From an uncultured Actinomycetes bacterium (GTDB lineage: Bacteria; Actinomycetota; UBA4738; HRBIN12): DNA of 64,000 nucleotides. The DNA is taken from the NCBI GenBank assembly GCA_963722795.1, contig CAVROD010000004.1, forward strand, positions 203,443-267,442, read 5' to 3'. Positions 4,940-60,099 of the stretch are shown piece after piece. Positions within the stretch are counted from its first letter, which is position 1; every line of letters starts with the position of its first letter. The notes beneath the pieces are model-generated. The model worked only from the letters and a program-made list of their open reading frames with translations, made no database searches and had not been told where the DNA came from. Made by a program: the position numbers and the translations under genes.

Positions 4940-4963
4940 GTCGGGCCGCCCTCGGGAAGCCGG

Positions 4964-5152
4964 TCAGCCAGGCGACGTCGTGGGACCGGCCGAGGAGCTG
5001 GGCGAGGGACTGGCCGAGGAGCTGGGCAGCTGGCCGGGGCTCGCCGGGCCGGGGAAGGGGTCCCCGCCGCCGCTCACGATCACGATCTGGGCCACCGCGG
5101 CCGCCCCGATGAGCACGAACAACACGACGATCATGATGAGGGTCTGGCGCCG
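4964..5152 (-). CDS. putative small single-TM protein with Pro/Ser-rich tail (62 aa)
   Basis: Translates to MRRQTLIMIVVLFVLIGAAAVAQIVIVSGGGDPFPGPASPGQLPSSSASPSPSSSAGPTTSPG. The ATG start at 5152 lies in the frame of ORF 4964..5776. Weak support. Confidence 0.3.
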   Translation of the reverse strand, partial: RRQTLIMIVVLFVLIGAAAVAQIVIVSGGGDPFPGPASPGQLPSSSASPSPSSSAGPTTSPG

Positions 5153-5172
5153 CATGACGAGGCCGAAGGCTA

Positions 5173-6010
5173 TCAGGCGCCGTTGCCCTGACCCTGCGCC
5201 GCGGAGGCATCGGGACCGAGCATGCGCTCGGCGTGTTCCCGCATGTCGACCATGACCGTTCGAAGCCGGATCGGGTCGGTGAGGTAGGTGCGGAGGTCGA
5301 CCTCGAGCGACACCGCGTGCGTCGTACCCGCTGCGCGCGAGGTCGGTGCAGAACGCGGCGAGGTCGAGTACGCCATCGCCGGGCGGCAGGTGCGAGTCCC
5401 AGCCCTGGCCCGCGTTGTCGGACAGATGCACGTGACGAAGGCGGTCGCCGAAGCGCCGCCGCACCTCGATCGGGTCGTGGCTCGGCGACCGCCGCATGGC
5501 TCGTGTCGAGCACGAGGTGGGGCAAGCCCTCCAGGTCGTCGAGGTCCTGGTTCGCGTGGAAGGTGACGCGCGCGCCGTCCCATGCGCACCGGGAACATGT
5601 TCTCGATCGCGACGGTGACCCCCGTGCGGGCCTCGACCCGCGGCAGCTCGTCGTCGAGCCAGCGTCGGTACGCCCGCTGCCACCGGTAGGGCGGGTGCAT
5701 CACGACGACCGGCACCTCGGCTTCCTCGGCCACCTGCACGGCGCGGTCGATCTTGCCGATCGGGTCGGTGCCCCACACCTTGCGTGTGACGAGCAGCGAC
5801 GGCGCGTGGATCGCCCCGATCGTCAGGTCATGCTCCTTCGCGAGCGCTCGCATCGTGGCAGGGTCCTGGCTCGCAGGATCCTTCGTCACCATGACCTCGA
5901 CGCCGGAGTACCCGGTCTCGGCCACGATGCGGAAGGTGGCGGCCAGGGGCCGGGCGAAGAACGCTGCCGACGAGAAGAGCAGTCGCGTGGTTGGCACCCC
6001 GACATCGTAG
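5173..6010 (-). CDS. sugar phosphate isomerase/epimerase (xylose-isomerase-like TIM barrel), frame-disrupted
   Basis: The N-terminal two thirds (VPTTRLLFSSAAFFARP...VTVAIENMFPV) lie in the frame of ORF 5173..6063. The middle (HVHLSDNAGQGWDSHLPPGDGVLDLAAFCTDLARSGYD) lies in the frame of ORF 4964..5776. The C-terminus returns to the first frame (VSLEVDLRTYLTDPIRL). This gives two compensating frame switches near 5590 and 5340. Confidence 0.6.
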
Positions 6011-6049
6011 GCATGCGGGCGCCCGACCGGCGGGCGTCTCGAGGCCCGT

Positions 6050-6765
6050 ATGCTGGGGGACATGTGGGTGTTCCCGCTGGTGGCCGCCGCGGTGGCCGGC
6101 CCTGTTCGCCGGGCTCGTGGCCGCCGCAGTACCGAACCCGCCGGCGCCCGTACCAGCTCGCGTGGGCCGTCGCGATGGCGATGTACGCCGTTGCCTCGAT
6201 CGCGGTGGCGCTCGGCGTGGCCGGGGGCTGGACGCAGCGGTGAGTTCCAGGTCTATTGGGCGCTCGGCGCGGTGCTGAACGTGCCGTTCCTGGCCGGTGG
6301 CGAGCTGATGCTGCTCGTGCGCAACCGCACGGTGCACGCGGCGATCTGGATCGTGCTCGTGTTCCTCACGGCCTACACGCTCGCGGTGCTGCGAGGCGCC
6401 TCGCTCGACGTCGCAGCGCTCGCCGAGGAGCTGCCGTCGGGCAAGCACGTCTTCGGCGACGGGTCGGCAGCCCACCGGCTGCCACAGCTCATCTCGATCC
6501 CGTCGTACCTGGTGCTCGTGCTCGGCGCGCTCTGGTCGGCGTGGCGCATGCGCGGGCGGCGGCGACCTGCGCGACCGGTTCATCGGCACGCTGCTCGTCG
6601 CGCTCGGCGCGACCGTGATCGCCGGGTTCGGCTCGGCGTTCGCCGCCGCCGGCGGCGCTGGCCGCGTTCTCGCTGTCGCTCGTCGCCGGCATCGCCGTGA
6701 TGTTCGCGGGGTTCCTGCGGGCCGCCCGCCAGGCGCCGTCGCCCGCCCCGACGGTCGCCGCGTAA
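6050..6765 (+). CDS. polytopic membrane protein, hypothetical, frame-disrupted
   Basis: Hydrophobic segments are spread over three frames (MLGDMWVFPLVAAAVAG / ALFAGLVAAAV / AWAVAMAMYAVASIAVALGVAGG / FQVYWALGAVLNVPFLAGGELMLL...LVLVLGALWSAW / AAFSLSLVAGIAVMFAGFLRAARQ). TAA stop at 6763-6765. Confidence 0.4.
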
Positions 6766-6813
6766 TCGCGTGATCGCGTGACCGCGTGATCGCGCAGTCG
6801 CGCCGTCGCCCCG

Positions 6814-7523
6814 CTACGCCGCCTCGGCCTCGCTCGCCGACCACCACTCGGCGCTCGTCGGCCGGTCGGTCGGGGCGTCGACGGGCTCGATGGAGATCCA
6901 CAGGTCGTCGTAGCGCGTGGGGTCAACCGGGATGTCGAGGAAGACGTGCCCCTCCGCCGGCGTGAAGCTCGCCGACGAACGTGGGGTCACCGCTGGCCAC
7001 GAGCCACACCCGGTACACCGAGCCGGCGGGCGGCTCGGGCACCCCGTCGCCCATCACGTAGGTGTGCTCCTCGCCGGGGGCCGTGATCTCGTGCACGGGA
7101 CCGACGTCGATACGGCTCGCATCGGGGCGCGTCGCGAGCTGCGCGGCGTTGGCGAGGGCCTCGGCCCGCACGTCGGCATCGTTGGCGCGCATGCTCTGGC
7201 TGATCGTGGCCCCCGCGAGCCCCACGACGACCGCGATGCCGGCGGCCACCGCGAACACCTGCATCGGACGCCGGCGCGGCGCCTGCGGTTCGAGCTCGCG
7301 GTGCAGGCGGGGCAACAGCGTCTCGGGAGGCGCCAGCGGCTCGGCCCCCACGCCCAGATCGGCGGAGAGGCGCTGGAAGTCGTCGAGGGCCTCACGGCAG
7401 GCGCCGCAGCCGGGCACGTGTTCGGAGAGCAGCCGGTCGGCTTCCGCGGCGTCGGCCCCCGACACGCTGCGCAGCACGTAGCCGGCCAGCAGTTCGTCGA
7501 TCGCATCGTGGTCGTCGTTCACC
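6814..7523 (-). CDS. rskA: anti-sigma-K factor RskA-like (zinc-binding anti-sigma factor with TM and C-terminal domain), one frame switch near 6960
   Basis: GTG start overlaps the sigma-factor stop (GTGA). N-terminal motif HVPGCGACREAL (HxxxCxxC) is followed by TM segment VFAVAAGIAVVVGLAG. The C-terminal domain continues in a second frame (…GELH / TPAEGHVFLDIPVDPTRYDDLWISIEPVD…) to a TAG at 6814. Confidence 0.7.
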
Positions 7524-8126
7524 GGCGCTCCAAGTCGGTCGGGAGATCTTCGGTTTCGAGCTCGGTGCGGTCGAGCGCTCGGCGCAACTTGCGCATCGCC
7601 GCGAGGGTCCTCGTCTTCACGGTGCCGACCGGGATCGCGATCTCCTCGGCGATCTGCACCTGGGTCTTCCCGCCGTAATACGCCATCTCGAGCACCTGTC
7701 GTTGTTCGGGCGGAAGGGTGTCGAGCGCCGCCCGGACCTCGATGCGACGCTCGGCCAGGTCGGCCGCGTCGGTGACACCCTCCGCTGGGTCTTCGACGGC
7801 CACCGGCTCGAGGTTCGAGGCCCGCTCCTGCCGGGCTCTGATGCGCTCCTCGCGCCGGACGGTGTCGACGGCGCGATGGTGCACGAGCGAGAGGAAGAAC
7901 GTGCGGAAGGCGCCGCGAGCGGGGTCGAACGCTTCCGGGGCGCGCCACACGGCCAGGAACGCGTCATGCACGACGTCCTGGGCGAGCACCTGCTGGCCCG
8001 TGATGCGATATGCCAGGCCGTATGCCAACGCGGAGTACCTGCGGTACAGGTCATCGAAGGCGCCGCGATCGCCCGCCGACAGGCTGCGGTGCAACTCCAG
8101 GTCGTCGCGCTCGCCCTCGCGCATGC
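7519..8126 (-). CDS. sigK: ECF (sigma-70 family) RNA polymerase sigma factor, SigK-like
   Basis: Region-2 motifs (DDLYRRYSALAYGLAYRITGQQVLAQDVVHDAFLAVW) and a region-4 HTH (LPPEQRQVLEMAYYGGKTQVQIAEEIAIPVGTVKTRT). Start taken at MREGERDDLE (ATG ~8126). Co-transcribed with the anti-sigma gene. Confidence 0.85.
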
Positions 8127-8147
8127 GCCGTATCCTCCCAGACACCG

Positions 8148-8417
8148 ATGCGCCCCCCCGACCGAGCCGGCGACCCCGCCCCACAGCACGTGGTGTTGTA
8201 CACCCGCCCGGGGTGTCACCTCTGCGACGACGCCCGGGCGGTGCTGCGCCAAGTTCGCGCGAGCGTGCCGTTCGAGCTGCACGAGGTGGACATCGAGACC
8301 TCCGACACCCTGGTGGGCGAATACGGCCTGCGCATCCCGGTGGTCGTCATCGACGGCCGGGAAGCATTCGAATACACGGTCGATCCCGTCGAACTCGAGT
8401 CGACGCTTCGTCGATGA
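8148..8417 (+). CDS. glutaredoxin-family protein (mycoredoxin/NrdH-like, CxxC)
   Basis: VVLYTRPGCHLCDDARAVL redox motif and IPVVVIDGRE follow a thioredoxin-fold pattern. The gene is divergent from sigK. The N-terminal extension in ORF 8010..8417 is spurious; ATG at 8148 precedes a C7 homopolymer. Confidence 0.75.
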   Translation: MRPPDRAGDPAPQHVVLYTRPGCHLCDDARAVLRQVRASVPFELHEVDIETSDTLVGEYGLRIPVVVIDGREAFEYTVDPVELESTLRR

Positions 8418-8503
8418 ACTGCCGCTTGGCCCACCCCGCTTGTGAGTTTGTGAACGCTGCCATCACGGCGCTAGTCTGAAGCCATGCAGCGGAGCGCTTC
8501 CCC

Positions 8504-9202
8504 GTGGTGAGGGATCGGACGATCCCCGAGGCCACGGTGGGGCGGCTGCCTGTCTACCTGCGCGCACTCGTCGATCTCGCGGAAGCCGGCGCCGGCACGG
8601 TCTCGAGCGACGAGCTCGCCGAGGCGGCGGGCGTGAACTCCGCGAAGGTGCGCAAGGATCTCTCGCACCTCGGGTCCTACGGCACGCGGGGCGTCGGCTA
8701 CGACGTCGCCTACCTCATCCACCAGATCCGCCGCGAGCTGGGGCTCACCCAGCACTGGGCGATCGCGATCGTGGGCGTCGGCAACCTCGGCCAGGCCCTG
8801 GCGAACTACGGTGGGTTCGCCGAGCGCGGCTTCCGGGTCGCGGCCCTCGTCGACGCCGACACCGCACGGATGGGCGAGCGCATCGGCGACCTCGAGGTGC
8901 GCCACGTCGACGACCTGCCGGCGATCGTGTCGGAGCTCGACGTGGCCATCGGCGTGATCGCCACGCCAGCCGGGGCCGCGCAGGAGGTGGCGGATCGGCT
9001 CGTCGACGCCGGGGTGCGGTCGATCCTGAACTTCGCGCCGGCGATGATCGCGGTGCCCCACGGGGTGTCGGTGCGCAAGGTCGACCTAGCGGTGGAGCTC
9101 CAGATCCTGGCGTTCTACGAGCAACGGAAGGCGACGCTCGCCGACCTGAAGCGCCGGGGCCGGGCGGTCGCCGACCTGGGCCCGGCTACTTCGAGATCGT
9201 GA
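8504..9202 (+). CDS. rex: redox-sensing transcriptional repressor Rex
   Basis: N-terminal winged helix (RLPVYLRALVDLAEAG...VSSDELA) plus Rossmann NADH-binding motif IAIVGVGNLGQALANY. Length 232 aa. Confidence 0.9.
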   Translation: MVRDRTIPEATVGRLPVYLRALVDLAEAGAGTVSSDELAEAAGVNSAKVRKDLSHLGSYGTRGVGYDVAYLIHQIRRELGLTQHWAIAIVGVGNLGQALANYGGFAERGFRVAALVDADTARMGERIGDLEVRHVDDLPAIVSELDVAIGVIATPAGAAQEVADRLVDAGVRSILNFAPAMIAVPHGVSVRKVDLAVELQILAFYEQRKATLADLKRRGRAVADLGPATSRS

Positions 9203-9299
9203 CCCAGAGGGCGGCGAAGACCGCGAGGATCATGATGCCCATCAGGATGAACTGCACGCTTCCCTGTTCGAGGAAGGGGAGCTCGAGGTTGGCGATCAT
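9186..9299 (-). CDS. putative small membrane protein (37 aa), last gene of the qcr-like operon; overlaps the rex 3' end
   Basis: ATG at 9299, translating to MIANLELPFLEQGSVQFILMGIMILAVFAALWVTISK with a TAG stop. One TM helix. It lies 22 nt downstream of the preceding membrane-protein gene on the same strand. Confidence 0.35.
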   Translation of the reverse strand: MIANLELPFLEQGSVQFILMGIMILAVFAALWVTISK

Positions 9300-9320
9300 C
9301 GGTTCGTCCTCTCTCGCGGG

Positions 9321-10052
9321 CTAGGCCGGGCCGTACCAGGCGGGTGCGCCGCCCCCGGTCAGGAACTCCTTGCGCTTCTTCTCGGCCCGGTCCATCAGCG
9401 GCAGGAACACCGCGAACGCCACGATCGAGCCGGCCAGGAACATGTACGAGTAGCGGGGCACGCTGCCCCCGTCGTAGTACAGCGAGACGGTCCACAGCGG
9501 TCCGCCGCCCGTGAAGTGCGATTGCACGACGGCGAGCTTCGTGCCGTCGTCCTCGGCGAAGCGGATCGAGTCGATCGCGAACTGGCTGCCGAGCACCGCG
9601 GTGGGGTCGGTCTCGGCGAGCCCCAGCTCTTCGTTCGTCTGCTCGGCGAGGAAGGCCGTCACGGCGCCGCTCGCGCTCTGCACGTCGGCGTTCGCGGCCT
9701 CGGGCACCACCCACGGGTCTCCCGGCCAGGTCCCGAAGGCGGCGTACTCGGTGGAGGTCTCGTCGACCGCGGCCTCGAGCGCCACCCAGGCCGGCTCGGC
9801 TCCGCGCGGTCCGAGGTTGGTCGGCGTCTCGAGGCCCTGCGACCAGAAGCCGAACAGCCAGAGCGCGGACTGCAGGACCATCCAGCCCGAGAACGACACC
9901 GCGAGCACCAGGAACCCGAGCCACCGGCCGAAGATGGCCGTGAGCAGCAGGTACGTGCTGAAGATGAACAGCGTGAAGCCCATGATCGTGACGCCGGCGC
10001 CCTTCCACAGGGTGTCGCACTCGATCGCGAAGCCGAGGCAGCTGTGCTCCAT
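9321..10052 (-). CDS. hypothetical polytopic membrane protein co-operonic with the cytochrome c / Rieske / cytochrome b genes
   Basis: Intact 243-aa ORF with four hydrophobic helices (three N-terminal, one C-terminal) around a ~120-aa hydrophilic domain. Its ATG directly abuts the stop of the upstream cytochrome c gene. Confidence 0.6.
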   Translation of the reverse strand: MEHSCLGFAIECDTLWKGAGVTIMGFTLFIFSTYLLLTAIFGRWLGFLVLAVSFSGWMVLQSALWLFGFWSQGLETPTNLGPRGAEPAWVALEAAVDETSTEYAAFGTWPGDPWVVPEAANADVQSASGAVTAFLAEQTNEELGLAETDPTAVLGSQFAIDSIRFAEDDGTKLAVVQSHFTGGGPLWTVSLYYDGGSVPRYSYMFLAGSIVAFAVFLPLMDRAEKKRKEFLTGGGAPAWYGPA

Positions 10053-10781
10053 CTACGGATCCCTCGGGTTGAGGCCGGGTCCGCCGTTCTCGGGCAGGTT
10101 CTCTTCGAGCGCCCGGGCCGAGGCCTCCTCGTTCAGGCAGACGTTGTCCTCGAACGGCACGTTCTCCGAGCTCATCTCGACGAGGTAGACGACCAGGTCG
10201 TTGATCTGCTGGTCGTTCAGCGCGCCCTGATAGCGGATGCTCCACGACGGCATCGCGCCCCGGCCCTCCTCGAGTCACCTGGTAGATGTCGTCCTGGGAG
10301 AAGATCGCTGGGTGGCGGGGTGCCGAACGGCCCGCGCACAGAGTTCGTGAGGTCCGGCGGGTACGCGAACGCGTCTCCCGCCTGGATCACGCCACCGCGA
10401 AGCTCCGGTCCGTGGCAGCGGACGCAGCCGACGCCGAGCTGGTTCTCCTCGGAGAAGGGCTGCACGGCGAGCTCGCCGCGGTCGTAGGCGAGCGTGAGCA
10501 GCTCGTCCTCCTGACGCAGGTTCTCCGAGGGCTCGCGCAGCCAGTTGTAGGGGATGAAGACCACGAAGAAGGCGACGAGCACGCACGCCCCAGCCCTGCA
10601 GCTTCTGCAGCAGCGGGGTCTCGAGGGCGGCGTCGCTCGGGCCCGGTCGCATGCCACGCGGGATGTCGAGCGGCTGCTCCTGCTGGCGGCTGCGCAGGAA
10701 CAACGCGGCGCCGGCCGCGACCACGAAGATCGCGCCGAGCACGAGCAGGACGATGCCTGCGGTGTTCGTGGCGGCGAGCAT
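10053..10781 (-). CDS. membrane-anchored monohaem c-type cytochrome (electron acceptor of the Rieske/cyt b complex), ~3 frame switches
   Basis: Assembled across three frames: two N-terminal TM helices (IVLLVLGAIFVVAAGAALFL, VLVAFFVVFIPYNW), haem motif CVRCHGP, a Met-ligand region (GGPGRD.MPSW) and the class-I C-terminus QINDLVVYLVEM. Confidence 0.7.
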
Positions 10782-10799
10782 CTCCGTGGCCGTTCCTCT

Positions 10800-11520
10800 C
10801 TATCCGGTCGCCACGCAGAAGGGGCCCTGCGGTGGCTGGTCGATCGTGTCGGCGCCGCGCGGGGGCCCGAGGATCACCTCGGACGTGTCGACGACGACGT
10901 TGCCGTCGGTGATCTCGAGCTTGAACCGGTCCATGCCGCGCAGGCGCCGGGCCGAGCTTGTACTCCCCGGCGCCGTTGTACTTCGAGCCGTGGCACGGGC
11001 ACTCGAACCACTTCGACGACCCGCAGTACGGGCACCCGGCAGCCGAGGTGCACGCATCGCTGGTACAGGGGCATGATGCCCTCGGCCGCGACGCCCTCGG
11101 TCACGTAGTCGACGTCACCGCTCGGTGAGCCGTTGTACCCGACGACGTAGAAGCGGCCGGTGCCGTTGTAGGCCGCGCCCGCCGGACTCGTCGATCTCGG
11201 CCTTGATGTCGGCGACGTTGCCGGCGTCGACGAGCGAGCCGAACCCGCCCTTGAGGTTCGGCCACAGGAACGCGATCGTGGCGCCGCCGAACTGGGCGCC
11301 GAAGACGACAGCGACGTCAGCAGGGAGCGGCGGAAGAAGTCGCGCCGCGAGAGCGACTTGACCGGCTTGCCGGCGACCTCGATCTGCCCGTCGGCGGTCT
11401 CGCGCGGCGGCGCGATTGCGCGCGCACGAACGACAGGCCGAACACGATCGCGAAGATGTCGAGCACCACGAACGCGAGGATCGCGGCGACGAGCGGCGTG
11501 GAGACAGCGCGAGCGTGCTC
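10800..11520 (-). CDS. qcrA: Rieske [2Fe-2S] iron-sulfur subunit (QcrA/PetC-like), at least 4 frame switches
   Basis: Pieces in different frames: TM LVAAILAFVVLDIFAIVFGL; Tat-like SLSRRDFFRRSLLT; FGAQFGGATIAFLWPNLKGGFGSLVDAG; box I CVHLGC; box II CPCHGSKYN; C-terminus GMDRFKLEITDGNVVVDTSEVILGPPRG. TAG stop at 10800. Confidence 0.75.
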
Positions 11521-12360
11521 ACAGCTCGAAGAACACCCCCTGCGCCCACGGCCAGACCCAGTTGTAGCCGGGGCCGCGGAAGAACGAGCCGATGATCGTG
11601 AGGACGCCGCCGAACATGAACAGGATCGTGAACAGCGTGATCGCGATCTTGCGGTCGCCCGGCTTGTTGCTCGGGTTGCGGTCGACGTAGGGCACCGCCG
11701 CGAGCCCGACCAGGATGAACGTGGGGATCGTGATGCCGGCCACCATCGGGTGGAAGTAGCGCAGCAGCTCCTGCAGGCCGAGGAAGTACCACGGCGCCTT
11801 CGACGGGTTCGGCGTGAGGTTGGGGTTCGCGAGCTCGCGCAGCGGCGCGTTGATGAACGTGGAGAACAGCGTCAGGCCCGCGAGCAGGATGAACATCGCG
11901 ACGAACTCTTCGATCAGCAGGTGCGGCCAGACGTTCACGCGGTCGCCCTGCTCGCGCTCGACCCGCTGGATGCCCTCGGGCGGCACCAGCGCCAGCAGGC
12001 GGTGCTTGTCGTCGGCGCCCTTCTTCGGCGTCGGGCACGTTGCCCGTGGGCAGCGGGGCTTCGCGCATCGGGGTCGTGACCGACGCGGCCACGGCCACGG
12101 CGGCAGGTGCCGCGGCACCGGCGGCGGCGGCAGCGGGTGCGGCAGCGGCCGCGCGCGCCGGGCGCGGCCGCCGCGGCCGCGGCACCGGCGCCGGCGGCCT
12201 CGTGCTTCGCTGCCTCCTCGGGGTTGGCGGCGCGGAATGCGCGCACGGCCGGCGACCGAGCGCGACCCTCGGCCACGCGGCGGTCGGTGCCCTTGGCGAG
12301 CTCCGCCTCCAGCGTGGAGTCGAAGACCTCCTGGTCGAGCGGGGTGTCTTCCTTGGCCAT
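11519..12360 (-). CDS. cytochrome b6f-type subunit IV (PetD-like C-terminal half of cytochrome b), Ala-rich N-terminal extension, frame-disrupted
   Basis: Motifs [21 protein letters not shown] and [21 protein letters not shown] match subunit IV / cyt b C-terminal helices. The N-terminus [23 protein letters not shown] lies in another frame. Confidence 0.7.
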
Positions 12361-12377
12361 GTCTCTCCTTGGACTCC

Positions 12378-13150
12378 CTAGAGCGGTCCCGAGATGCCGC
12401 CGTCCTTGCGGATGCGCCAGAAGTGCACCGCGAGGAAGATCACCAGCACGAACGGCAGTGCGATCACATGCAGCGTGTACCAGCGGAGCAGGGTCTCGGG
12501 CCCGACCACGACGCCGCCGAGCAGCAGGAAGTTCGCCTGCTTCGCGATGAACGGCGAGTAGCCCGGCGAGCGACGTGCCCACGGTGACCGCCCAGATCGC
12601 GAGCTGGTCCCACGGCAGCAGGTAGCCGGTGAACGACAGGCCGAGCGTGAGGAACAGCAGGATCACGCCGACGACCCAGTTGAACTCGCGCGGCGGCTTG
12701 TAGGCGCCCGGTGTAGAACACGCGCGCCATGTGCAGCGTGACGCTGAAGACCATGAGGTGGGCGCCCCACCGGTGCAGGTTGCGCACCAGGTCGCCGAAG
12801 AACACCGACGTGCGGATGCTCTGCATGTCGGTGAAGGCCTGCGCGCCGCCGATGTCGGCCGTGGGCCGGTAGAAGAACATCAGGAAGATGCCGGTGATGG
12901 TGAGCAGGATGAACAGGAAGAACGACAGCCCGCCCAGGCAGAACGTGTAGGTCAGCTTCAGCCCGTGCCGCTTCACCTTCACCGGGTGCAGGTGGTAGAG
13001 CACGTTGTTCATCGTCGCGAGCGCGCGGTCGCGCGACGTGTCCTTGTAGCCCTTGCGGAAGATCGACCCCGGCCGGAAGATCGACTTCCAGACCTCGGTC
13101 TCCCTGATCCGGTCACCCAGGTCGCTCGGCGACGGAGGCTTCAGCTTCAC
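12378..13150 (-). CDS. qcrB: cytochrome b6-like (N-terminal cytochrome b, bis-haem), two single-base frame switches
   Basis: Conserved segments [86 protein letters not shown] and [21 protein letters not shown]. The protein stops after ~255 aa, so it is a split b6-type, not a full-length cyt b. Confidence 0.85.
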
Positions 13151-13174
13151 GTCTTCTCCCTCTCGCGTCGCGGC

Positions 13175-13580
13175 TCATCCGGCCTCGGCCTGCGAGGTCG
13201 GCACCTCGGCCATCGTGCGCGTGCCGCCCTTGGAACCCTCGGGCAGTCGCGCATAGTACAGGGTGTCGGTGGGGCAGCGGTCGACGCACACCGAGCATCG
13301 CGTGCAGGCGTTGTCGTCGACGACGAAGATCGGCGTTCGACGTTGTCGACCTCGTCGCCGACCGACGTCGATCGGCCGCGCCCTCGACGATGCCCGGCGA
13401 CATCATGTAGATGCAGTTCCAGGGGCAGACGTCCTCGCAGGCGCGGCACAGGATGCAGTTGTCGGGATCGAGCATCAGGTGCTTCGGCGACTTCACGCCC
13501 TGGGCGAGCCACGCCGGGTCGACGGCCTCCACGACGTAGTCCTCGTGGATGTCGACCTCGGTCTTCGTGTAGGCCATCGC
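13175..13580 (-). CDS. 2[4Fe-4S] ferredoxin-like protein co-operonic with cytochrome b6, one frame switch
   Basis: Starts MAYTKTEVDIHEDYVVEAV... First cluster motif CILCRACEDVCP, second CTRCSVCVDRCP after a frame switch near 13370. Its ATG is 10 nt downstream of the preceding gene's stop. Confidence 0.7.
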
Positions 13581-13590
13581 GCGCCCGATC

Positions 13591-14018
13591 CTACCGGTAT
13601 CCGCCGGTCGGACGGTTGTCGGATTGCCCGCGCAGCTTGCGGCGCCAGTTCTGCATGATCGCCCCGCCGACGAGCACGATGATGATCGGCCCGGTGCTGC
13701 AGGCCCATCGCGACCGCGTCGCGCACCTGCAGCAGCAGCTCGTCGTAGGCGGCCGGCTCGCCGCCCGGCAGCAACGTGGGCAGCTCTTCGAGCGCCGCTT
13801 CGATGTCGGTCGGGCCCTGCCAGCCGAACTTCTGCTCGCGTCAAGTAGAGCCAGAACGACGGGAGCACCGAGGTCGTGATCAGCAGGAAGAACACGAGCC
13901 CGAGCGAGAAGACGACCGCTGTGGTCCACGTCCACTCGAAGTCCTTGAGGAACGCCTCGACGCGTGCCCTTCGGGTCTGCGTGGCCGTGGCGGGCGTCGT
14001 GGTCTCGACCTGGCTCAT
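13591..14018 (-). CDS. hypothetical two-TM membrane protein, first gene of the qcr-like operon, two frame switches
   Basis: SD AGGAGCG then ATG at 14018. Starts MSQVETTTPATATQTRRARVEAFLKDFEWTWTTAVVFSLGLVFFLLITTSVLPSFWLYL... and ends in a second TM GPIIIVLVGGAIMQNWRRKLRG. Confidence 0.5.
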
Positions 14019-14126
14019 ACGCTCCTGTGTTCCTCGCGTGTCTCGTCGGGCGAGTCTGCCTGAGGCGGGGGGATTATAGACATGTGCCGCACGCGCTCGA
14101 CGACCGCCTTCCACGCTTCGCGATGC

Positions 14127-14144
14127 TCGTGAATCGTTTCACAA
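14127..14144. promoter_or_regulatory. Rex operator (ROP) candidate TCGTGAATCGTTTCACAA
   Basis: 17/18 match to the actinobacterial Rex consensus TTGTGAAnnnnTTCACAA. It sits in the divergent intergenic region between the qcr-like operon (start 14018, minus) and ccdA (14214, plus). Confidence 0.55.
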
Positions 14145-14213
14145 GCGCGTCCGTCTACTATCGCTCGGGTACGCCCTCGGTCCGCGCAAGACAACCGAGC
14201 TCGGAGCCGACCG

Positions 14214-14957: not shown

Positions 14958-14975
14958 GGGGCGCCGCTAGGATCG

Positions 14976-16624
14976 GTGCTGGCCCCATGTCGTCTCCCCA
15001 GCGCCTCTCGATCGCGCCAGTCGGTCGCCCTCGTGTGGCGGACCCTGCGCTCGATGCGCACGGCGCTGATCCTGCTGCTGCTCATCGCGCTCGCCTCGGT
15101 CGCCGGGTCGCTGCTGCCCGCAGTGGCCCGAACACGCCCGGACCGCGTGCTGCAGTACCAGGTCGACGCACCCGTTCTGGGGCACGTTCTTCGACCGCGC
15201 CGGACTGTTCGACGTCTTCGGGTCCTGGTGGTTCGTGCTGCTCGCGACGCTGCTGTTCGTCTCGCTCGTCGCCTGCCTCGTGCCGCGCACCCGCGCGCTC
15301 TGGCGGGCGTTGCGCACGCCGCCGCGTGCAGGCTCGCGAGATCGACGCCTTCCCGCGCTACGCCGAGGTCGCGCGTCGCCGCGGGCGCCCGAGGCGGCCA
15401 TCGAGGCGGCTCGCGACGGGTGCTGCGCCGTCGGCGGTTCCGGGTGGCGCGCGACCCGGCCGGCCCGCCCTCGCCGCCGAGAAGGGCGTGGCCCGCGAGG
15501 TCGGCAGCCTCGCGTTCCACTGGGCGTTCATCCTGCTGCTCGCCGGCGTCGTCTATGGCAAGGGCACCGGGTTCAGCGGGCTCGTCGCGGTGGTCGAGGG
15601 CCAGACCTGGGTCGACGCCGAGGCGAACTACGACGGCACACTCCGAGCGGGCCGGTTCTTCGACGACTTCACCGGGGTCGGGCTGCGCTTGCGTGACTTC
15701 GGCAGCGAATTCGCGCACACCGGGCAGCCGATGGACTTCGTCTCCGAGGTCGACCTGCTCGACGCCCGACGGCTCGTCGCTGCGACAGGAGTCATCAGGG
15801 TGAACCATCCGGCGAAGATCGACGGCATCTGGATCTATCAGTCGAGCTTCGGGTGGGCGCCGCTCATCGAGGTGACGCTCGACGGCGAGGTCGTCTCGTC
15901 GGGACCCGTGGTCATGGATCGTGACGCCGCGCCCGAGGGGGTCGTCGAGTTCGCGATGCCGTGGCGCGGCGTCGTGAAGCTGCCGGGGGCCGGCGACCAG
16001 GGCCTCGACCGCGCGATCGAGCTCGAGCTCTGGCCCGACAGCACGGCACTCGCGAACCTGGTGCAAGGTGGCGAACCGCAGGCCATGCTTCGCGAGTTCG
16101 ATCCGGTCATCCGCTTCACGGTCTGGGAAGGCGTGCTCGGCGACCTCTCCACGAACCGCCTCGACACGACGACCCTCGAGGACGTCTCGAGCGGCATCGT
16201 CGGCGCCGGGCGCACCGCCGATCTCGCCGACGGCGGCGCCCTGCCCGAGGGCGGCACGGGATCGGGCTCGACGATCTCGTTCCCCGAGCTGCGGCAGTAC
16301 TCGGTGTTCCAGGTCGCGCGCGACCCCGGGGTGCCCCTGGTGCTGGCCGCGGCTATCCTCATCCTCGCGGGCCTGCTGCCCGCGCTGTACAGCTCGCGGC
16401 GCAAGGTCTGGGTGCGCGCCGACCCGGACGGCGACGGGGCGGTGCTGCGTGTCGGCGGGCTCGCGATGCAGCGCAAGCCGCAGTTCGAAGAGGAGTTCGC
16501 TCGGCTCGTCGACGCGCTCGCGTCGGCGGCCGGCAGCGCCCCGGCGCCCGGCCCGCCGACCGGGGCCGGTGACGACCCAGGGGCACAGGAACCAGGAGCG
16601 CAGGAAAGGGTGCCGACGCCGTGA
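14976..16624 (+). CDS. resB: cytochrome c biogenesis protein ResB/Ccs1, ~3 frame switches in the N-terminal third
   Basis: N-terminal TM RTALILLLLIALASVAGSLLP, FWGTFFDRAGLFDVFGSWWFVLL, and a large periplasmic domain (…GIWIYQSSFGWAPLIEVTLDGE…) with a C-terminal TM LVLAAAILILAGLL. Confidence 0.75.
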
Positions 16625-17593
16625 CCGACCTGCAGTGGGCCCGCGTCTCGAACGACGCGTTCAACGTCGCGCTGTTCGCCTACCTCGCCTCGATGCTCGG
16701 CTACTTCGTGTTCCTCGCCTTCAAGCGCGAAGGCGTCTGGCAGGTGTCGAGGGCGGTGGCGGTCGTGGGCGTGGCCGCGAACCTCGTGTCGATCGTGGCG
16801 CGCGGGCTCTCGGCCGACCGCGTGCCGTGGGGAAACATGTACGAGTACTCCTCGCTGCTGGCGATGCTCGTCGTGGTCGGCGCGCTCGTCGTGGTCGAGG
16901 GCGTGTACAAGGTGCGCTCGCTCACCGGCTTCGCCCTGATGTTCAGCGTGCTCACGATGGCGGTGGCCGTGTCGTTCCTCTACGTCGGCCCCGGACCGCT
17001 CGTGCCGGCGCTCAACTCGTACTGGATCAAGATCCACGTGCAGGCGGCGATCTGGGGTTCCTCGCTGTTCGCGCTCGGTGGCATCGCGACGATCGCCTAC
17101 CTCGTGGTGGACCGGTCGGAACAGCGACGGCTCGCGAGGCTCGGCTCGCACACGCCGCCGCCGATCATGGGCGGCTCGATCGACCTCGAGGCCGGCGCCC
17201 CTCGCCCCGACGCACCCGACGACCTGGTGCCCGACTCGGCCGAGGACGTCGCCACCCGGCCCTCGCTCGCGCCGCCTCGTGCCGTCGGCCGCCGGGCTCG
17301 ACCGACTCGCGTACCGCATCATCGCGCTCGCGTTCCCGATCTGGACGTTCGCGGTGATCGCCGGCGCGATCTGGGCGCAGGAAGCCTGGGGGCGCTACTG
17401 GGGCTGGGACCCGAAGGAGACGTGGTCGTTCATCACGTGGGTCATCTTCGCCGGGTACCTGCACGCGCGCGCCACGAGCGGGTGGAAGGGTCGCCGCGCC
17501 GCCGTCATCGCGCTCGTCGGCTTCGTCTCGCTGTTGATCACGTACTACGCCGTGAACCTCTGGATCGTGGGTCTGCACAGCTATGCGAAGTGA
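16621..17593 (+). CDS. resC: cytochrome c biogenesis protein CcsA/ResC (haem exporter), one frame switch near 17280
   Basis: WWD-domain C-terminus WAQEAWGRYWGWDPKETWSFITWVIFAGYLHAR. Start overlaps the resB stop (GTGA). Confidence 0.8.
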
Positions 17594-17706
17594 TGCGGCG
17601 ACGACCTCTGGATGCACGAGGCGTCGGTGATACAGTGCGCGCGTTCCGGCCGGGTCGGGGGCAGGCCGCGGACAGCCGAGCCGTCAGGTAAGGAGCGAGA
17701 GCGATC

Positions 17707-18804
17707 GTGCGGAAGAAGTCGCTGTGGACCCTCGGCCTGATCGCCGTGGGACTGCTGCTCGCGGCATGTTCTCCCGACGCCAGCCAGGACACCCTGCAGC
17801 CCGTCGGCGACGTCGCGAAGCAGCAGAAGGCCCTCTTCGTGCCGGTGTTCTGGGTGGCCGTCGGGGTCTTCGTGATCGTGCAGGGCGGCATCCTGTACAT
17901 CGCCATCCGCTACCGGCACCGCAAGGGCCGCGACCGCATGCCCAGGCAGACCCACGGCAACACCCGGCTCGAGATCGGCTGGACGATCGCCGCCGGCGGT
18001 GGTGCTCGCCGTCGTCATGGTGCCGACGGTGTCGCTGCTCTGGGACCTCGCCCGCCCGCCGGCCGACGGCGCCCTCAACATCACGGTCGAGGGCTACCAG
18101 TGGTGGTGGGGCTTCGCCTATCCCGACGACGACATGGTGACCGACTGGGACACGCCCCATCACGATCGCCGACACGATGGTGGTGCCCACCGGGCGCGAC
18201 GTCTACCTCTCGCTGGAGTCCCGTGGCGGCGGGGCGCAGGACGCGAACGGCGATCCGGACTTCCAGGTGATCCACTCGTTCTGGGTGCCCGAGCTGTTCG
18301 GCAAGCAGGACGTGATGCCGGGCCGGACGAACCACGATCCTGTTCAGCGTCGACGAGCCTGGCACCTACACCGGGCAGTGCGCGGAGTTCTGCGGGCTGC
18401 AGCACGGGCTGATGAAGCTCGAGGTCGTCGCGCTCGCGCCGACGGACTGGGAGGCCTGGGTCGCGAACCAGCAGACGCTGCCGCCGAGCCCGACCGACCC
18501 GCTGGCGAAGCAAGGGGAGGAGCTGTTCCTGAACCCGCTGAGCGACGGTCGCGGCCAGTGCACGGCGTGCCACGCCGTCGGCGACTCGCCGGGCGGCGCG
18601 GCCGCGCCCGAACCTGACGCACTTCGCCGACCCCGACCCACACGTGCTTCGCGGGGTGCAACTGGTCCACCGAGGACCGTGAGGCGCTCGCGGCCTGGCT
18701 CGAGAACCCCGACGCGGTCGAAGCTCGGCGCGAAGATGCCCGACTACGGCCTCACGCCCGAGGAGATCGATGCCCTCGTCGCCTACCTGTACAGCCTGAC
18801 GTGA
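17707..18804 (+). CDS. ctaC: cytochrome c oxidase subunit II with C-terminal cytochrome c domain (caa3-type), ~4 frame switches
   Basis: Lipoprotein-like signal LAACS, CuA motif HSFWVPELFGKQDVMPGRTN...CAEFCGLQHGLM, then a C-terminal CTACH haem-c motif and LTPEEIDALVAYLYSL. Confidence 0.85.
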
Positions 18805-18823
18805 TGGAGGCGATCACCGACCC

Positions 18824-20704
18824 ATGGCGAGCGTGAGCGTTCCGGCGAGCGGCCGGGGTCTGCTGCGGCGGCCCACGGCGATCACCGGCTTCTGGAGCTG
18901 GTTCACCACGGTGGACCACAAGAAGATCGGCATCATGTACGGCGTCACCGCCTTCGTGTTCTTCATCGTCGGGCGGTCTCGAGGCGCTGCTGATCCGGGC
19001 GCAGCTCGCGCAGCCCGACGGCACCCTGCTGAACGCCGACCAGTACAACCAGATCTTCACGATGCACGGCATCACGATGATCTTCCTGTTCGTGATGCCG
19101 ATGTCGGCGGCGTTCTTCAACTACATGATCCCGCTGATGATCGGGGCGCGCGACGTGGCGTTCCCGCGGCTCAACGCCTACAGCTTCTGGGTCTTCCTGC
19201 TTGGCGGTCTGTTCCTGTACTCGAGCTTCGTTCCTGGGCGGCGCGCCCAACGGCGGCTGGTTCGGCTACGCGCCGAACTCCACGACCGACCCGTCGATCG
19301 GCATGACCTTCTACGCGATCGGACTGCTGATCACGGGCATCGCCTCGACCGTCGGCGCGGTGAACCTGGCGGTCACGGTCGTGAACATGCGCGCGCCGGG
19401 CATGACGTTGTTCCGCATGCCGCCGTTCGTCTGGATGGGGCTCGTGGTGCAGTTCCTGCTGGTGTTCTCGCTGCCGATCATCACGGTGGCCCTGTTCCAG
19501 CTGCTGTTCGACCGGCGATGGGACACGGCGTTCTTCGATCCGACCCGTGGCGGGGAGCCGATCCTGTGGCAGCACCTGTTCTGGCTCTTCGGCCACCCCG
19601 AGGTCTACATCCTGATCCTGCCGGCCTTCGGCATCATCAGCGAGGTCCTGCCGGTCTTCAGCCGAAAGCCCCTGTTCGGCTACCAGTTCGTGGTCTTCTC
19701 GGGCATCGCGATCGGCTTCATCGGGTTCGGCGTGTGGGCCCACCACATGTTCGCCGCCGGACTGGGGCCGGTCGCCAACACCGCGTTCGGCATCTCGACC
19801 GCGATCATCGCGATCCCCACGGGCGTGAAGATCTTCAACTGGATGGGCACGATGTACGGAGGCGACATCCGGTTCGCGACGCCGATGCTCTTCTCGGTCG
19901 GCGCCGTCGCGATGTTCGTGATCGGTGGACTCTCGGGGGTCACGCACGCGATCGTGCCGAGCGACTACCAGCAGACCGACACCTACTACATCGTCGCGCA
20001 CTTCCATTACGTGATCTTCGGCGGTGCCGTCTTCGGCATCTTCGCCGGGCTGTTCTACTGGTGGCCGAAGGTGTTCGGGCGCAGCTTGGGCGAGGCGTCG
20101 GGCAAGGTGCAGTTCTGGCTCTTGCTCGTCGGGTTCAACCTCGCGTTCGGGCCGATGCACATCCTCGGCCTGCAGGGCATGATCCGACGCGAATACACCT
20201 ACCCCGAGTCGCTCGGCCTCACCTTCTGGAACCAGATCGCGACGGTCGGCGCGTTCCTGATCGCCGTCTCGGTGTTGATGTTCATCGTGAACGCCGTGCG
20301 CACGCAGCTCCGACAGCCCGCGGCGAGGTCGTCGAGGACCCATGGGACGCGCGCACCCTGGAGTGGATGACGTACGAGCCCGCCGCCGGTGCACAACTTC
20401 GACGAGATCCCGACCGTGCACTCCCTCGACGAGTTCTGGCACCGCAAGTACGTGGAGGACGAGCGCACCGGCACGCTCGTACCGGCGCAGGCGGGGGCCT
20501 CCGACCAGGACCCCGGTCATGCGTCCGGGCACGGCTCGATCCATCTGCCGAGCCCGTCGTACTGGCCGCTCGTGTCGGGCCTCGGCCTGCCGATCATCGG
20601 GCTACGGCGTGCTCTACTCCTGGTGGCTGATCGGGCTCGGCGCGCTCGTCGTCGCTGATCGGGTTCTACGGCTGGGCCCTCGAGCCATCGGTCGCGGAGG
20701 ACTA
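18824..20704 (+). CDS. ctaD: cytochrome c oxidase subunit I with C-terminal extension, ~4 frame switches
   Basis: Conserved segments GFWSWFTTVDHKKIGIMYG, MIFLFVMPMSAAFFNYMIPLMIGARDVAFPRLN, WQHLFWLFGHPEVYILILPAFGIISEV, GVWAHHMFAAG and YIVAHFHYVIFGG. Ends ...FYGWALEPSVAED. Confidence 0.85.
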
Positions 20705-20706
20705 GT

Positions 20707-21348
20707 CATGGCCGACCTCGCGATCACCCCCGGGCACGGCGCCGTCGAAGCGCACGACGAGCACGCGACCACCACGGGGCTGCCGAACACGAAGCTCGCG
20801 ATGTGGATGTTCCTCGCGTCGGAATGCATGTTGTTCGGCGCGCTGATCAGCACCTACGTGCTGTACCGCGGCGCCAGCCAGACGGGCCCGTACCCCGACG
20901 ACGTCTTCGACATCCCCTACACGTCGGTGTCGTCGTTCGTGCTGCTCGCGTCGTCGCTCACGATGGTGCTCGCGCTCGCTGCGGCGCAGAAGCGCGACGT
21001 CGCTGCGCATGCGCCTGTGGCTGCTCACCACCGCGCTGCTCGGCCTCACGTTCGTCGGCGGCCAGGTCTACGAGTTCACGACCTTCTACGACGAGGGCCT
21101 GTCGATCTCGACGAACCTGTTCGGCACGACGTTCTACGTGCTCACCGGCTTCCACGGGGTGCACGTCACCGTCGGCATCCTGATGCTGCTCTCGCTCGTC
21201 GGCTTCTCGACCGCCGACCGGCTGCCCGACGACGCCGCGTTCCCGGTCGAGATGGTCGGGCTGTACTGGCACTTCGTCGACATCGTGTGGATCGTCGATC
21301 TTCACGGTCGTGTACCTGATCCCGACCCCTTCCCCGGCCCCGGTCTAG
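20707..21348 (+). CDS. ctaE: cytochrome c oxidase subunit III, two frame switches
   Basis: Starts HTTGLPNTKLAMWMFLASECMLFGALISTYVLYRG, continues TTFYVLTGFHGVHVTVGILML and ends LYWHFVDIVWIVIFTVVYLIP. Confidence 0.8.
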
Positions 21349-21354
21349 GAGGCG

Positions 21355-21731
21355 ATGACGGTGTCCGAGATCGAATCGCGCTTCCAGGAGGAACTCGGCA
21401 CGCGCGACATGGCCGACCCCGGTGAGGCTCGCGCGCCTCACCACGAGCACCCGAGCGCCAAGGAGTACATCCGCATCGGCGTGATCCTCGCCGTGCTCAC
21501 CGCCCTCGAGGTCGCGACGTACTACGTCGACGTCGGTGGCGCGCTCGTGCCGACCCTGATCGGGCTCTCGGTCGTGAAGTTCGCGCTCGTCGTGATGTGG
21601 TTCATGCACCTGAAGTTCGACAGTCCGACGCTACGCGCGGTACTTCCTGATGGGCCTCGCCGGGGCGACCACGCTGTACCTCGTCGTACTGATCTCGTTC
21701 GGCGTCTTCAAGGTCGGAGTGAGGGAGCGTG
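21355..21731 (+). CDS. ctaF: cytochrome c oxidase subunit IV (prokaryotic caa3 CoxIV/CtaF-like), frame-disrupted; 3' end uncertain
   Basis: SD GGAGG then ATG. Central motif HPSAKEYIRIGVILAVLTALEVATYYV, then FALVVMWFMHLKFDS / RYFLMGLAGATTLYLVVLISFGVF in a second frame. Confidence 0.6.
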
Positions 21732-22561
21732 CAGCTTCCCGACTGGCATCTGCACCCCGACGTGTGGCTGCTGTTCGGCTCGATCGTCGCCGCGTACCTG
21801 ATCGCCGCGCGCCGGCACCTCGACGACGACAGGCGAGGCGACGTCGCGGCGCTCGAGGACCCTGTTCCTCACGGGCATGGGAGTGCTCTGGCTCGGCGCC
21901 GACTGGCCCGTGCACGACCTGGCCGAGGGCTACCTCTACTCCATGCACATGACCCAGCACCTGCTGTTCACGCTCGTCGCGGCCCCGCTGCTGATCGCGG
22001 GCATGCCGGCGTGGATGCTGCGCGTGCTGCTCGCGCCCGCCGCCCGTGCGCCGGGTGTTCCGGTTCGTGACGCGGCCGCTCGTGGCGCTCGTCGTCTTCA
22101 ACGGCGTGCTGCTCTTCACGCACTGGCCCGCGGTCGTGGAGGCATCGGTCGGCTCCGAACCGATCCACCTGTCGCTGCACGTGCTGATCGTCGCCTCGGC
22201 GCTCGTGATGTGGTGGCCCGTGATGTCGCCGCTGCCCGAGATGCCGTCGCTGTCGGCGCCCGGCCAGATGATCTACCTGTTCCTGCAGTCGCTCGCGCCC
22301 ACGATCCCGGCGTCGTTCCTGACGTTCGGACACACGCCGCTGTATCCGGTCTACGCGACGTTCCCGCGCATCTGGGGCATGTCGGCGCTCACCGACCAGC
22401 TCATCGCGGGCCTCATCATGAAGCTCGCGGGCGGGCTGTTGCTGTGGACCGTGATCGCGGTCATCTTCTTCCGCTGGTTCGAGCAGGAGCAGCGCGACGG
22501 GCTGGACCGGTCGGCCCACCAGAACCTGCACCGAGAGATCGGCGCGGAGCTGTCCCGATGA
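21729..22561 (+). CDS. ctaG: caa3-type cytochrome oxidase assembly factor CtaG-like polytopic membrane protein, two frame switches
   Basis: Seven predicted TM helices (LLFGSIVAAYLIAARRH, LFLTGMGVLWLGADWP, HMTQHLLFTLVAAPLLIAGMPAW, PLVALVVFNGVLLFTHWP, LHVLIVASALVMWWPV, IYLFLQSLAPTIPASFLTF, LIAGLIMKLAGGLLLWTVIAVIFF). Family call rests on position in ctaCDEF(G) and topology. Confidence 0.6.
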
Positions 22562-22613
22562 GGAGCGACCGAACGGATGAGTGCCGGATGCGTGCCAGAG
22601 ATGAGCGACCGAG

Positions 22614-23925
22614 ATGAGTGACAGCAAGAACCGGCAGAGCCTGCTGCTGCCGATCCTGATGCCGATCGCGGTGCTCGCCGTGATCGTGCTCGTGCTGTTC
22701 GGGTTCTCGCGCGTGTTGCTGGCGGTCTCGCACAACGCCGCCACCGTGGTCGCGCTCGTGGCGGCCGCCGGCATCGTCGTCGGTCGCCGCCTGGGTCGCC
22801 TCGCGCAAGCGCGTGACGGGCGGCACGCTCTTCTCGATGGTCGCCGCGATGGCGGGCATCGCGATGGTGGCCGGTGGGCTCGCCGTGGTCGCGGCGCCCC
22901 TGCATGCCGAGGAGGAAGTCGAGGAGCCGGGCGGGGTCGTCGTGGCGCTCGCGGCCCCCGAGGGCGCGGCGGCGTCGGGCTTCTCCACCGAAGCCCTCTC
23001 GGTGCCGAGCGACGAGCCGTTCACGATCGCCTTCGACAACCAGGACCCCGCGGTGCCCGCACAACGTCGTGGTGTTCGACGGGCCGGACGCCGAAGCGCC
23101 GGCCCTCGTCACGGGTGAGCTGATCACCGGTCCGGCCACGGCCGACTACCCGGTCGAGCCCGTGCCCGAGGGGGAGTACTTCTTCCACTGCGAGGTGCAT
23201 CCGACCACGATGGTCGGCACGATGACCGCTGCGCCTGGCGCCGGCGGCGGAGGCGGTGAGGAGGGGGTCACGGTCGTGGCCGCCGACCTCGCGTTCGACA
23301 CCGACACGATCGAGCTGCCCGTCGACGTCGAAACCACGATCACGATGGACAACCAGGACCCCGGCATCCAGCACAACATCGCGATCTACACCGACGACTC
23401 GCTCGGGGAGGAACTGTTCAAGGGGGAGCTCGCGACCGGGCCGGCGAGCGTGAACTACACCGTGCCGCCGCTGCCGGCCGGCGAGTACTACTTCCAGTGC
23501 GACGTGCATCCGAACATGGCGGGCACCGTCGTGGTGGCCGGCGATGAAGGTGGCGGTGGGGGCGAGGATCCCGGCGGCGGCGAGGATCCCGGCGGCGGTG
23601 AGGACCCGGCGGCGGCGAGGAGCCGCCCGACGGCGGGGGCACCGCGGCGGCCGCGGTCACGGCCGTCGGCCTCGCGTTCGAGCCCACGACGCTCACCTGG
23701 CCCTCGAACAGCGAGGTGACGCTCACCTTCGACAACCAGGACGACGCCGCCGTCAACGGCCAGCACAACGTGTCGATCTACGACGGCGACACGGCCCTGT
23801 TCCAGGGCGAGCTGGTCTCGGGGGTCGCCACGGTCGACTACACGATCCCGCCGATGGAACCCGGCACGTTCGAATTCCGATGCGACGTGCATCCCACGAT
23901 GGTCGGCACGGTCGAGGTCACCTGA
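22614..23925 (+). CDS. membrane-anchored protein with three tandem plastocyanin-like type-1 copper (cupredoxin) domains, ~3 frame switches
   Basis: N-terminal TM helices (LLLPILMPIAVLAVIVLVLFGF). Three repeats of the pattern FDNQD...HN...F.GEL..GP......P...GEY.F.C.VHP.M.GT (AVPHNVVVFDG/FHCEVHPTTMVGT; GIQHNIAIYTD/FQCDVHPNMAGT; GQHNVSIYDG/FRCDVHPTMVGT), separated by Gly-rich linkers GGGGGEEG and GGGGGEDPGGGEDPGGGEDP. Confidence 0.7.
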
Positions 23926-60098: not shown

Positions 60099-60099
60099 C

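Follow-up and report, generated by a model that had tools for sequence, protein, structure and literature searches.

Tandem strain alleles, rather than gene decay, probably account for clustered frame disruptions in the respiratory gene region of an uncultured Actinomycetota window

The stretch of DNA studied here (the window) is 64 kb long, has a GC content of about 70%, comes most likely from a metagenome-assembled genome (MAG) of an uncultured Actinomycetota lineage, and carries a large set of respiratory genes, many of which are broken by the frame disruptions that are the subject of this report. Near the window start lie genes for a short-chain dehydrogenase, a phosphatase, a CLP1_P-type P-loop protein and an S-adenosylmethionine (SAM) hydroxide adenosyltransferase, followed by a TIM-barrel enzyme, a membrane protein, a pair of anti-sigma and extracytoplasmic function (ECF) sigma factors, and Rex. 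The minus strand then holds the cluster for a b6c-type complex, made up of a membrane protein, a 2x[4Fe-4S] ferredoxin, cytochrome b6, subunit IV, a Rieske protein and a monohaem cytochrome c. In this bc-type cluster (10101-14020), cytochrome b is split in a b6f-like manner into b6 and subunit IV, and the 2x[4Fe-4S] ferredoxin-type and small membrane protein genes precede the rest, an arrangement that is kept across the syntenic MAGs. Next come ccdA-resB-ccsA, ctaC-ctaD-ctaE-COX4-ctaG, a cupredoxin gene, resA and, on the minus strand, a fused ctaA-ctaB; further along are two genes with polyprenyl_synt and PNPOx_N matches in the relative L164, a MenJ-like FAD reductase, nuoA-N and a polyprenyl synthase. 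The distal part contains a second nuo cluster, htpX, a HAD-family hydrolase region, a pyridoxal-dependent decarboxylase and an aminotransferase. The stretch from 9 to 31 kb shows synteny with numerous MAGs of uncultured Actinomycetota, at nucleotide identities of 70-78%.

Frame disruptions were mapped with a frameshift-aware protein-to-DNA aligner written for this analysis, using as queries the open reading frames (ORFs) of 11, and then of 5 more, syntenic loci. Close relatives, which are environmental, were found through protein searches and contig look-ups, and base-by-base DNA alignments were made against 3-15 of them. With distant references (70-78% nucleotide identity), the aligner returned the right number of events, with imprecise placement and some spurious deletions and two-nucleotide events, and the calls from closer relatives were used instead. 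The check for frameshifts reaches 58.6 kb; the segment from 58.6 to 64 kb has no syntenic reference. Single intact reference ORFs mapped colinearly onto two to seven frame segments of the window, at positions that were consistent across 11-16 syntenic genomes, and a phase plot of GC content at third codon positions (GC3) showed switches to be far denser at 5-24 kb than elsewhere. From 5157 to 23056, the reading frame is broken about 58 times, by 51 one-base insertions, five two-base insertions and two one-base deletions. The density is 3.24 per kb inside this region (58 in 17.9 kb) versus 0.17 per kb outside it (7 in 40.7 kb; P = 8e-23). A sequence-only reading had put about 35 frame switches at 5-24 kb; the DNA alignments confirm both the disruptions in the sequence and their strong clustering, and raise their number to about 58. 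The same reading listed the affected respiratory genes correctly, its seven events outside the region proved exact (one each in nuoD, nuoM2, htpX and the aminotransferase and three in nuoG), and the stretches that it called clean were clean by alignment. The positions of all events are collected in Table 1.

Every event is specific to the window. The orthologues are uninterrupted in contigs with nucleotide identities of 98% (98.1%; L101, window 7527-9090), 95.4% (L081, 16368-23101), 93% (L168, 50904-53933), 92% (L169 and L170, ctaC-ctaE), 89% (L083, 17790-23218) and 80-86% (L082, L089, L092-L094 and L164-L167, jointly 1-58.6 kb). The only length difference from the 98%-identical relative, over 1.56 kb, is at 8433 in an intergenic C run, where the window has one C fewer (CCCC versus CCCCC); this is the single clear homopolymer-length difference seen across the whole analysis.

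The respiratory genes are densely hit, but the cluster starts in non-respiratory genes and consists of two blocks with a clean 3.3 kb between them (gap P about 1e-3). The first block lies wholly in the genes for the TIM-barrel enzyme, the membrane protein and the anti-sigma factor. No events fall in Rex, the ECF sigma factor gene or most of the anti-sigma gene, nor in the C-terminal part of resB, a 1.1-kb piece of ctaD, resA or ctaAB. The distribution of the events is positional, not functional. As causes of this patchiness, we rejected a periodic or chunk-wise failure, since the spacing in the second block is roughly Poisson and only the 3.3-kb gap (and marginally a 1.8-kb gap) stands out, and also GC content or failed polishing in GC-rich parts, since the part of the region with the lowest GC content (18-22 kb, 67%) is itself among the dense stretches.

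At face value, such a pattern could be produced by a genuine recent pseudogenisation of the branch formed by the bc-type complex, cytochrome c maturation and the caa3 oxidase: the respiratory genes hold most of the events, resA and ctaAB are spared, and real mutations are possible on sequence alone. Reductive pseudogenisation, for example in Mycobacterium leprae, leaves stop codons, varied deletions, relaxed constraint and loss of conserved residues. When the extra bases were removed, ccsA, ctaC, ctaD, ctaE, COX4, ctaG and the cupredoxin gene had no internal stops and encoded proteins with 90-100% amino acid identity to those of L081. The corrected left-block proteins gave full-length Pfam matches (ResB 1-486 of 486, Cytochrome_B 9-188 of 189, DsbD_TM 3-214 of 219 and AP_endonuc_2 1-230 of 249) and also matched Rieske, Cytochrom_C, Fer4 and Cytochrom_B_C. 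No nonsense mutations, large deletions or domain loss were seen in the corrected genes. As a second test of decay, unique substitutions were counted with L083 as the root: the window had 20 at codon positions 1 and 2 and 50 at position 3, while L081 had 37 and 95, giving constraint ratios of 0.40 and 0.39, respectively. Fewer unique substitutions at an equal ratio mean that the window lineage shows neither relaxed selection nor acceleration, and that substitution errors are not in excess. Judging by the mutation spectra of bacteria, some 58 neutral indels should be accompanied by hundreds of unconstrained substitutions and a deletion bias, neither of which is seen here.

Additional features of the events speak against decay. 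One-base insertions outnumber one-base deletions by 56 to 4 when events inside and outside the dense region are combined (P = 9e-13), which is opposite to the deletion bias of bacterial pseudogenes. Unrelated genes are affected, parts of the pathway are spared, and the pattern follows position. Moreover, frameshifting mutations have no cause to favour the wobble position or to carry the alternative allele of relatives, both of which are found here (see below). The window resembles M. leprae-type decay in having many frame disruptions clustered in one functional module, but its genes show none of the marks of that decay, and their close relatives are intact. We consider pseudogenisation highly improbable and conclude, from the corrected sequences, that the genes for the bc-type complex, cytochrome c maturation and the caa3 oxidase are almost certainly intact in the organism. 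The sequence-only reading had favoured an artefact over decay, and this part of its interpretation is strongly supported by intact relatives of up to 98% identity, the lack of stops, the lack of acceleration and the presence of events in unrelated genes. Its second part, that homopolymer lengths had been miscalled, did not find support.

Run-length miscalls in homopolymers, as known from 454, Ion Torrent and older nanopore consensus sequences, had been proposed from sites inspected by hand. Errors of this kind lengthen or shorten a run of identical bases, typically one of three or more, and become likelier the longer the run is. Those sites had been read correctly: on the gene strand, 12707 stands in GGGCGCC and 12562 in GCCGGGC, and the ccdA insertions at 14313 and 14328 are both in three-base runs. 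The general signature drawn from them does not extend to the whole set. The 51 inserted bases (25 G, 20 C, 4 T and 2 A) lie in runs of at least two identical bases in 14 cases, in runs of at least three in only seven, and in runs of at least four in none. When the same bases were inserted at random in the same region, 29 +/- 3.4 were expected in runs of at least two (about 57%, versus 27% observed; P < 2e-4), so runs are significantly under-represented, and 37 of the 51 inserted bases are unlike both neighbours. Length miscalls should also produce both over- and under-calls, in contrast to the excess of insertions over deletions. What remains in favour of miscalls is that three hand-checked sites, and the seven insertions overall, are in runs of three. 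Under a model in which two alleles stand in tandem, however, 16.6 of the 51 insertions would look homopolymer-like by chance, and 14 are observed (p = 0.55); the homopolymer-type minority is matched by this model, and its sites are consistent with stacked alleles too. The hand-checked sites happen to fall in the approximately 27% minority in which the stacked allele would equal its outer neighbour. Homopolymer miscalling is thus a very unlikely source of the disruptions.

The position of the extra bases within codons and their identity proved more informative. In the stretch annotated from L081, all 20 genic insertions fall between codon positions 3 and 1 or between 2 and 3, and none between 1 and 2 (chance about (2/3)^20 = 3e-4); the stacked pair yields synonymous codons in 18 of the 20. 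Window-wide, 48 of 54 insertions touch the wobble position as defined by GC3, compared with an expected two thirds (P = 1.6e-4). At several sites, the window carries a doublet where a single column varies between the same two bases among the relatives: CG versus C/G at 18720, CG versus G/C at 18970, TG versus T/G at 21005 and GA versus G/A at 21718. In the right block, the inserted base equals an allele of the relatives in the adjacent column in 15 of 22 non-homopolymer events (positional null 0.18, P = 4e-7), and in the left block in 11 of 15 (null 0.48, P = 0.045). No shared sequence motif was found around the 56 sites (at most 0.23 bit per position). An error that creates CpG or follows a methylation motif was considered, as a C precedes 10 of the 11 G inserted in the right block; it was dropped, since the minus-strand gene region reverses the pattern (G[C] on the plus strand) and there is no motif. 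The C before the inserted G arises because the wobble alleles are G and C.

These tests bear on a further possibility, namely that the extra bases are generic insertion errors, left by a single-molecule long-read consensus in patches that were thinly covered or had escaped polishing, and unrelated to strain polymorphism. This would fit the nearly insertion-only spectrum without excess substitutions, the patchy distribution that ignores gene function, and the few events that are off the wobble position or lack an allele in relatives, and indel-induced frameshifts are well known in long-read assemblies. However, such errors should fall between codon positions 1 and 2 in one third of cases, while this slot holds 0 of 20 insertions in the best-referenced stretch and 6 of 54 overall; they should touch an identical base in about 57% of cases rather than 27%; and they give no reason for the 15 of 22 allele matches in the right block, where 18% would be expected. 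We regard generic errors as the weaker and an unlikely explanation of the whole pattern, although a low-coverage insertion-error process may contribute some of the events.

Taken together, these results point to an artefact of assembly, most likely, rather than a real biological feature, and probably to one in which a consensus collapsed from several strains wrote single-nucleotide polymorphisms (SNPs) as +1 insertions, which we call allele stacking. We hypothesize that the window is a consensus into which reads from at least two very similar coexisting strains were merged, and that at single-base differences between them the consensus step would have kept both alleles in tandem instead of one, turning each SNP into a +1 insertion. 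In conserved genes, SNPs between strains would gather mainly at third codon positions, where they are synonymous, and two alleles are by definition different bases. Synonymous, differing alleles would therefore give extra bases beside the wobble position, mostly G or C in a 70%-GC genome, which rarely extend a homopolymer and break the frame without amino acid damage. The wobble preference and the match to an alternative allele of relatives argue for a pre-existing synonymous polymorphism, since neither frameshift mutation nor random read error has such a preference. In dense blocks, the collapsed strains would differ from each other or both have good coverage; in clean blocks, a single haplotype would dominate or the strains would be the same, and the blocks may thus map where co-existing strains differ. 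The events, their bias towards insertion, their wobble location, their match to alleles of relatives and the intactness of the corrected genes are seen directly, whereas the read-level step and the part of software or platform in it are inferred.

Three features that allele stacking calls for could be compared with the data. In alignments to 3-15 relatives, the doublet pair occupies one column in the intact relatives; the sites are at naturally polymorphic synonymous wobble positions; and both stacked bases exist as alleles, with the relatives serving as a proxy for the population. Several observations weigh against allele stacking. Support for two alleles side by side in the source sample comes by proxy, from relatives that were found in other samples. 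Six of the 54 insertions are away from the wobble position (5322, 5479, 5570, 6121, 14485 and 15015), and the one at 51483, by its alignment, is apparently a seventh. About a third of the tested non-homopolymer events have no matching allele in the relatives, and the left-block allele test is only marginal because its many references raise the null. Finally, stacking gives no specific account of the five two-nucleotide insertions, the four deletions, or the frame changes at about 23600 and at 12107-12168. The first of these two changes falls in the Gly/Glu-rich repeat linker of the cupredoxin gene, which differs from L082 by an 18-nucleotide deletion (23256) and a 44-nucleotide insertion (23585-23628); the change lies inside the 44-nucleotide repeat-length difference, for which this single 83%-identical reference allows both natural repeat variation and an artefact.

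The extra bases could also be real. If one lineage did carry them in its DNA, +1 insertions would have struck wobble positions in a sudden and very recent burst, through a hitherto unrecognised mutational process, and would only just have inactivated the bc, cytochrome c maturation and caa3 genes. An uncultured actinomycete of soil would then have newly turned from aerobic respiration that depends on cytochrome c; we give this reading very little credence. Alternatively, real extra bases might be bypassed by programmed recoding, through +1 ribosomal frameshifting or transcript editing, in keeping with the same +1 correction being needed by nearly all events. The 56 sites, however, share no common motif, no site is conserved in any relative (including those 92-98% identical), and events occur in intergenic DNA as well (17617). 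To our knowledge, there is no bacterial precedent for recoding at a density of up to six events per gene, and we judge the chance of recoding to be negligible.

Allele stacking has a parallel in a known system. In the PacBio assembly of Trypanosoma brucei Lister 427, collapsing allelic variants gave insertion/deletion errors and apparent frameshifts that were gone after phasing (Cosentino et al. 2021, PMC8445201). There, co-assembled haplotype variants misalign reads and the resulting errors mimic frameshifts and pseudogenes; likewise, the events in the window coincide with variable sites in genes that are otherwise intact. The two cases differ in that the haplotypes here would be bacterial strains of a community rather than homologous chromosomes, and that the signature in the window is unusually clean, with single SNP alleles in tandem, almost only +1, at the wobble position. 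The window also resembles the indel frameshifts of long-read genomes and MAGs that are the target of IDEEL scoring, short-read polishing and proovframe, in that gene predictions are truncated, the errors are detected via full-length homologues, and the genes are intact. The classical cause of such frameshifts in Nanopore data is homopolymer length error (PMC9262707), whereas the events in the window lie in homopolymers less often than expected and follow wobble sites that are polymorphic.

The distinction matters for how such assemblies are read. At face value, the window implies loss of the cytochrome bc / caa3 branch in an uncultured Actinomycetota lineage, and that inference would be wrong. 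Left with uncorrected frames, gene callers, pseudogene counters and metabolic reconstructions would under-call respiratory capacity on such assemblies. The pattern of insertion-only, non-homopolymer, wobble-located events that carry the alleles of relatives is a diagnostic that can be read from the sequence and its close relatives alone, and it separates collapsed-strain consensus errors from both homopolymer errors and real decay.

Table 1. Dense and clean stretches and affected genes, with the frame-breaking events in window coordinates (insertions are of one base unless stated otherwise).
Feature	Coordinates (strand)	Events	Basis and remarks
Dense block 1	5157-6968	10 insertions: 5157, 5322, 5479, 5570, 6098, 6121, 6235, 6563, 6657, 6968	5.5 per kb; multi-reference DNA alignment; frameshift-aware alignments to L089, L092, L093, L094, L096
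Xylose-isomerase-like TIM-barrel gene (AP_endonuc_2)	5176-6048 (-)	Insertions 5322, 5479, 5570	Pfam match split over two frames
Membrane protein, no Pfam family	6011-6753 (+)	Insertions 6098, 6121, 6235, 6563, 6657	Strand from better-scoring reference ORF
Anti-sigma factor (RskA_C)	6817-7645 (-)	Insertion 6968	Pfam; DNA and frameshift-aware alignments
Clean stretch	6969-10274	No genic indel	Up to 15 references; holds most of anti-sigma gene, ECF sigma factor, Rex (8480-9199), unknown gene (9324-10052)
Dense block 2	10275-23056	41 insertions; 5 two-base insertions (13338, 13370, 15370, 15415, 20316); 2 one-base deletions (11308, about 15460)	3.8 per kb
Monohaem cytochrome c gene	10101-10800 (-)	Insertions 10275, 10584	Pfam Cytochrom_C on corrected protein
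Rieske iron-sulfur protein gene	10803-11520 (-)	Insertions 10941, 11030, 11184, 11406, 11418; deletion 11308	11-12 references agree; Pfam Rieske on corrected protein
Cytochrome b subunit IV (Cytochrom_B_C)	11522-12360 (-)	Insertion 12032; further frame change at about 12107-12168	Frame change in Ala-rich linker
Cytochrome b6-like gene (qcrB)	12381-13150 (-)	Insertions 12562, 12707	235/262 amino acids identical to L007 with two +1 events, no stops
2x[4Fe-4S] ferredoxin-type gene, upstream of cytochrome b	13187-13577 (-)	Two-base insertions 13338-13339, 13370-13371	
Small membrane protein gene	13594-14020 (-)	Insertions 13700, 13839	
ccdA (DsbD_TM)	14196-14954 (+)	Insertions 14313, 14328, 14485, 14610, 14857	Corrected protein covers 3-214/219 of profile
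resB	14990-16567 (+)	Events 15015, 15168, 15324, 15370-1, 15415-6; deletion about 15460	Positions less exact (sole DNA reference 83% identical); C-terminal 1.1 kb clean
ccsA/resC	16603-17590 (+)	Insertion 17266; insertion 17617 in intergenic spacer	Corrected protein 100% identical to L081
ctaC (COX2 and cytochrome c domain)	17704-18801 (+)	Insertions 17992, 18154, 18332, 18606, 18635, 18720	
ctaD (COX1)	18800-20700 (+)	Insertions 18970, 19230, 20316-7 (2 nucleotides), 20373, 20601, 20653	Intact 624-amino acid orthologues, 96-98% amino acid identity
ctaE (COX3)	20708-21340 (+)	Insertions 21005, 21296	
COX4_pro and Caa3_CtaG	21350-22558 (+)	COX4_pro insertions 21630, 21718; Caa3_CtaG insertions 21825, 22042	
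Cupredoxin-domain gene	22605-23919 (+)	Insertions 22779, 23056; last frame change about 23600	
nuoD	30705-31942 (+)	Insertion of C at 31536	Context T[C]G; L164 and L165 agree
nuoG	33899-36356 (+)	Deletion 35284; T insertions 35587, 35860	Intact 802-804-amino acid orthologues
nuoM2	50846-52382 (+)	Insertion of C at 51483	L166 and L168 agree
htpX (Peptidase_M48)	53973-54805 (+)	One-base deletion 54166	
Aminotransferase (Aminotran_3)	56479-57930 (-)	Insertion of G at 57166	

Beyond the frame disruptions, several features of the window were noted. CtaA (COX15) and CtaB (UbiA) form one fused ORF of about 639 amino acids (24533-26449, minus strand), and the fusion is kept in relatives, as a 617-amino acid gene in L164 and as ORFs of 637-650 amino acids in L007 and L016. 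The second nuo cluster (45056-53864) contains only homologues of NuoA, B, C, H, I, J, K, L, M and N, without NuoD, E, F and G, and the same gene order is annotated in L166 and L167; a nuo cluster that lacks NuoD is unusual, and it may depend on the first operon.

Close to the window start, the segment from about 4119 to 5020, which takes in the greater part of the gene for the SAM hydroxide adenosyltransferase (3986-4936), is missing in L094 and L096, where the BLAST alignments break, and is present in L089, showing that this gene is variably present. At the other end, a tRNA-Tyr (GTA) lies at 58486-58569, exactly where synteny with L166 and L167 stops. The coding signal is weak and patchy from 58570 to 64000, and a hidden Markov model of codon usage marks 61656-62355, 62710-63170 and 63282-64000 as non-coding; the tRNA-Tyr boundary and the DNA downstream of it may represent an integration site or a variable region.

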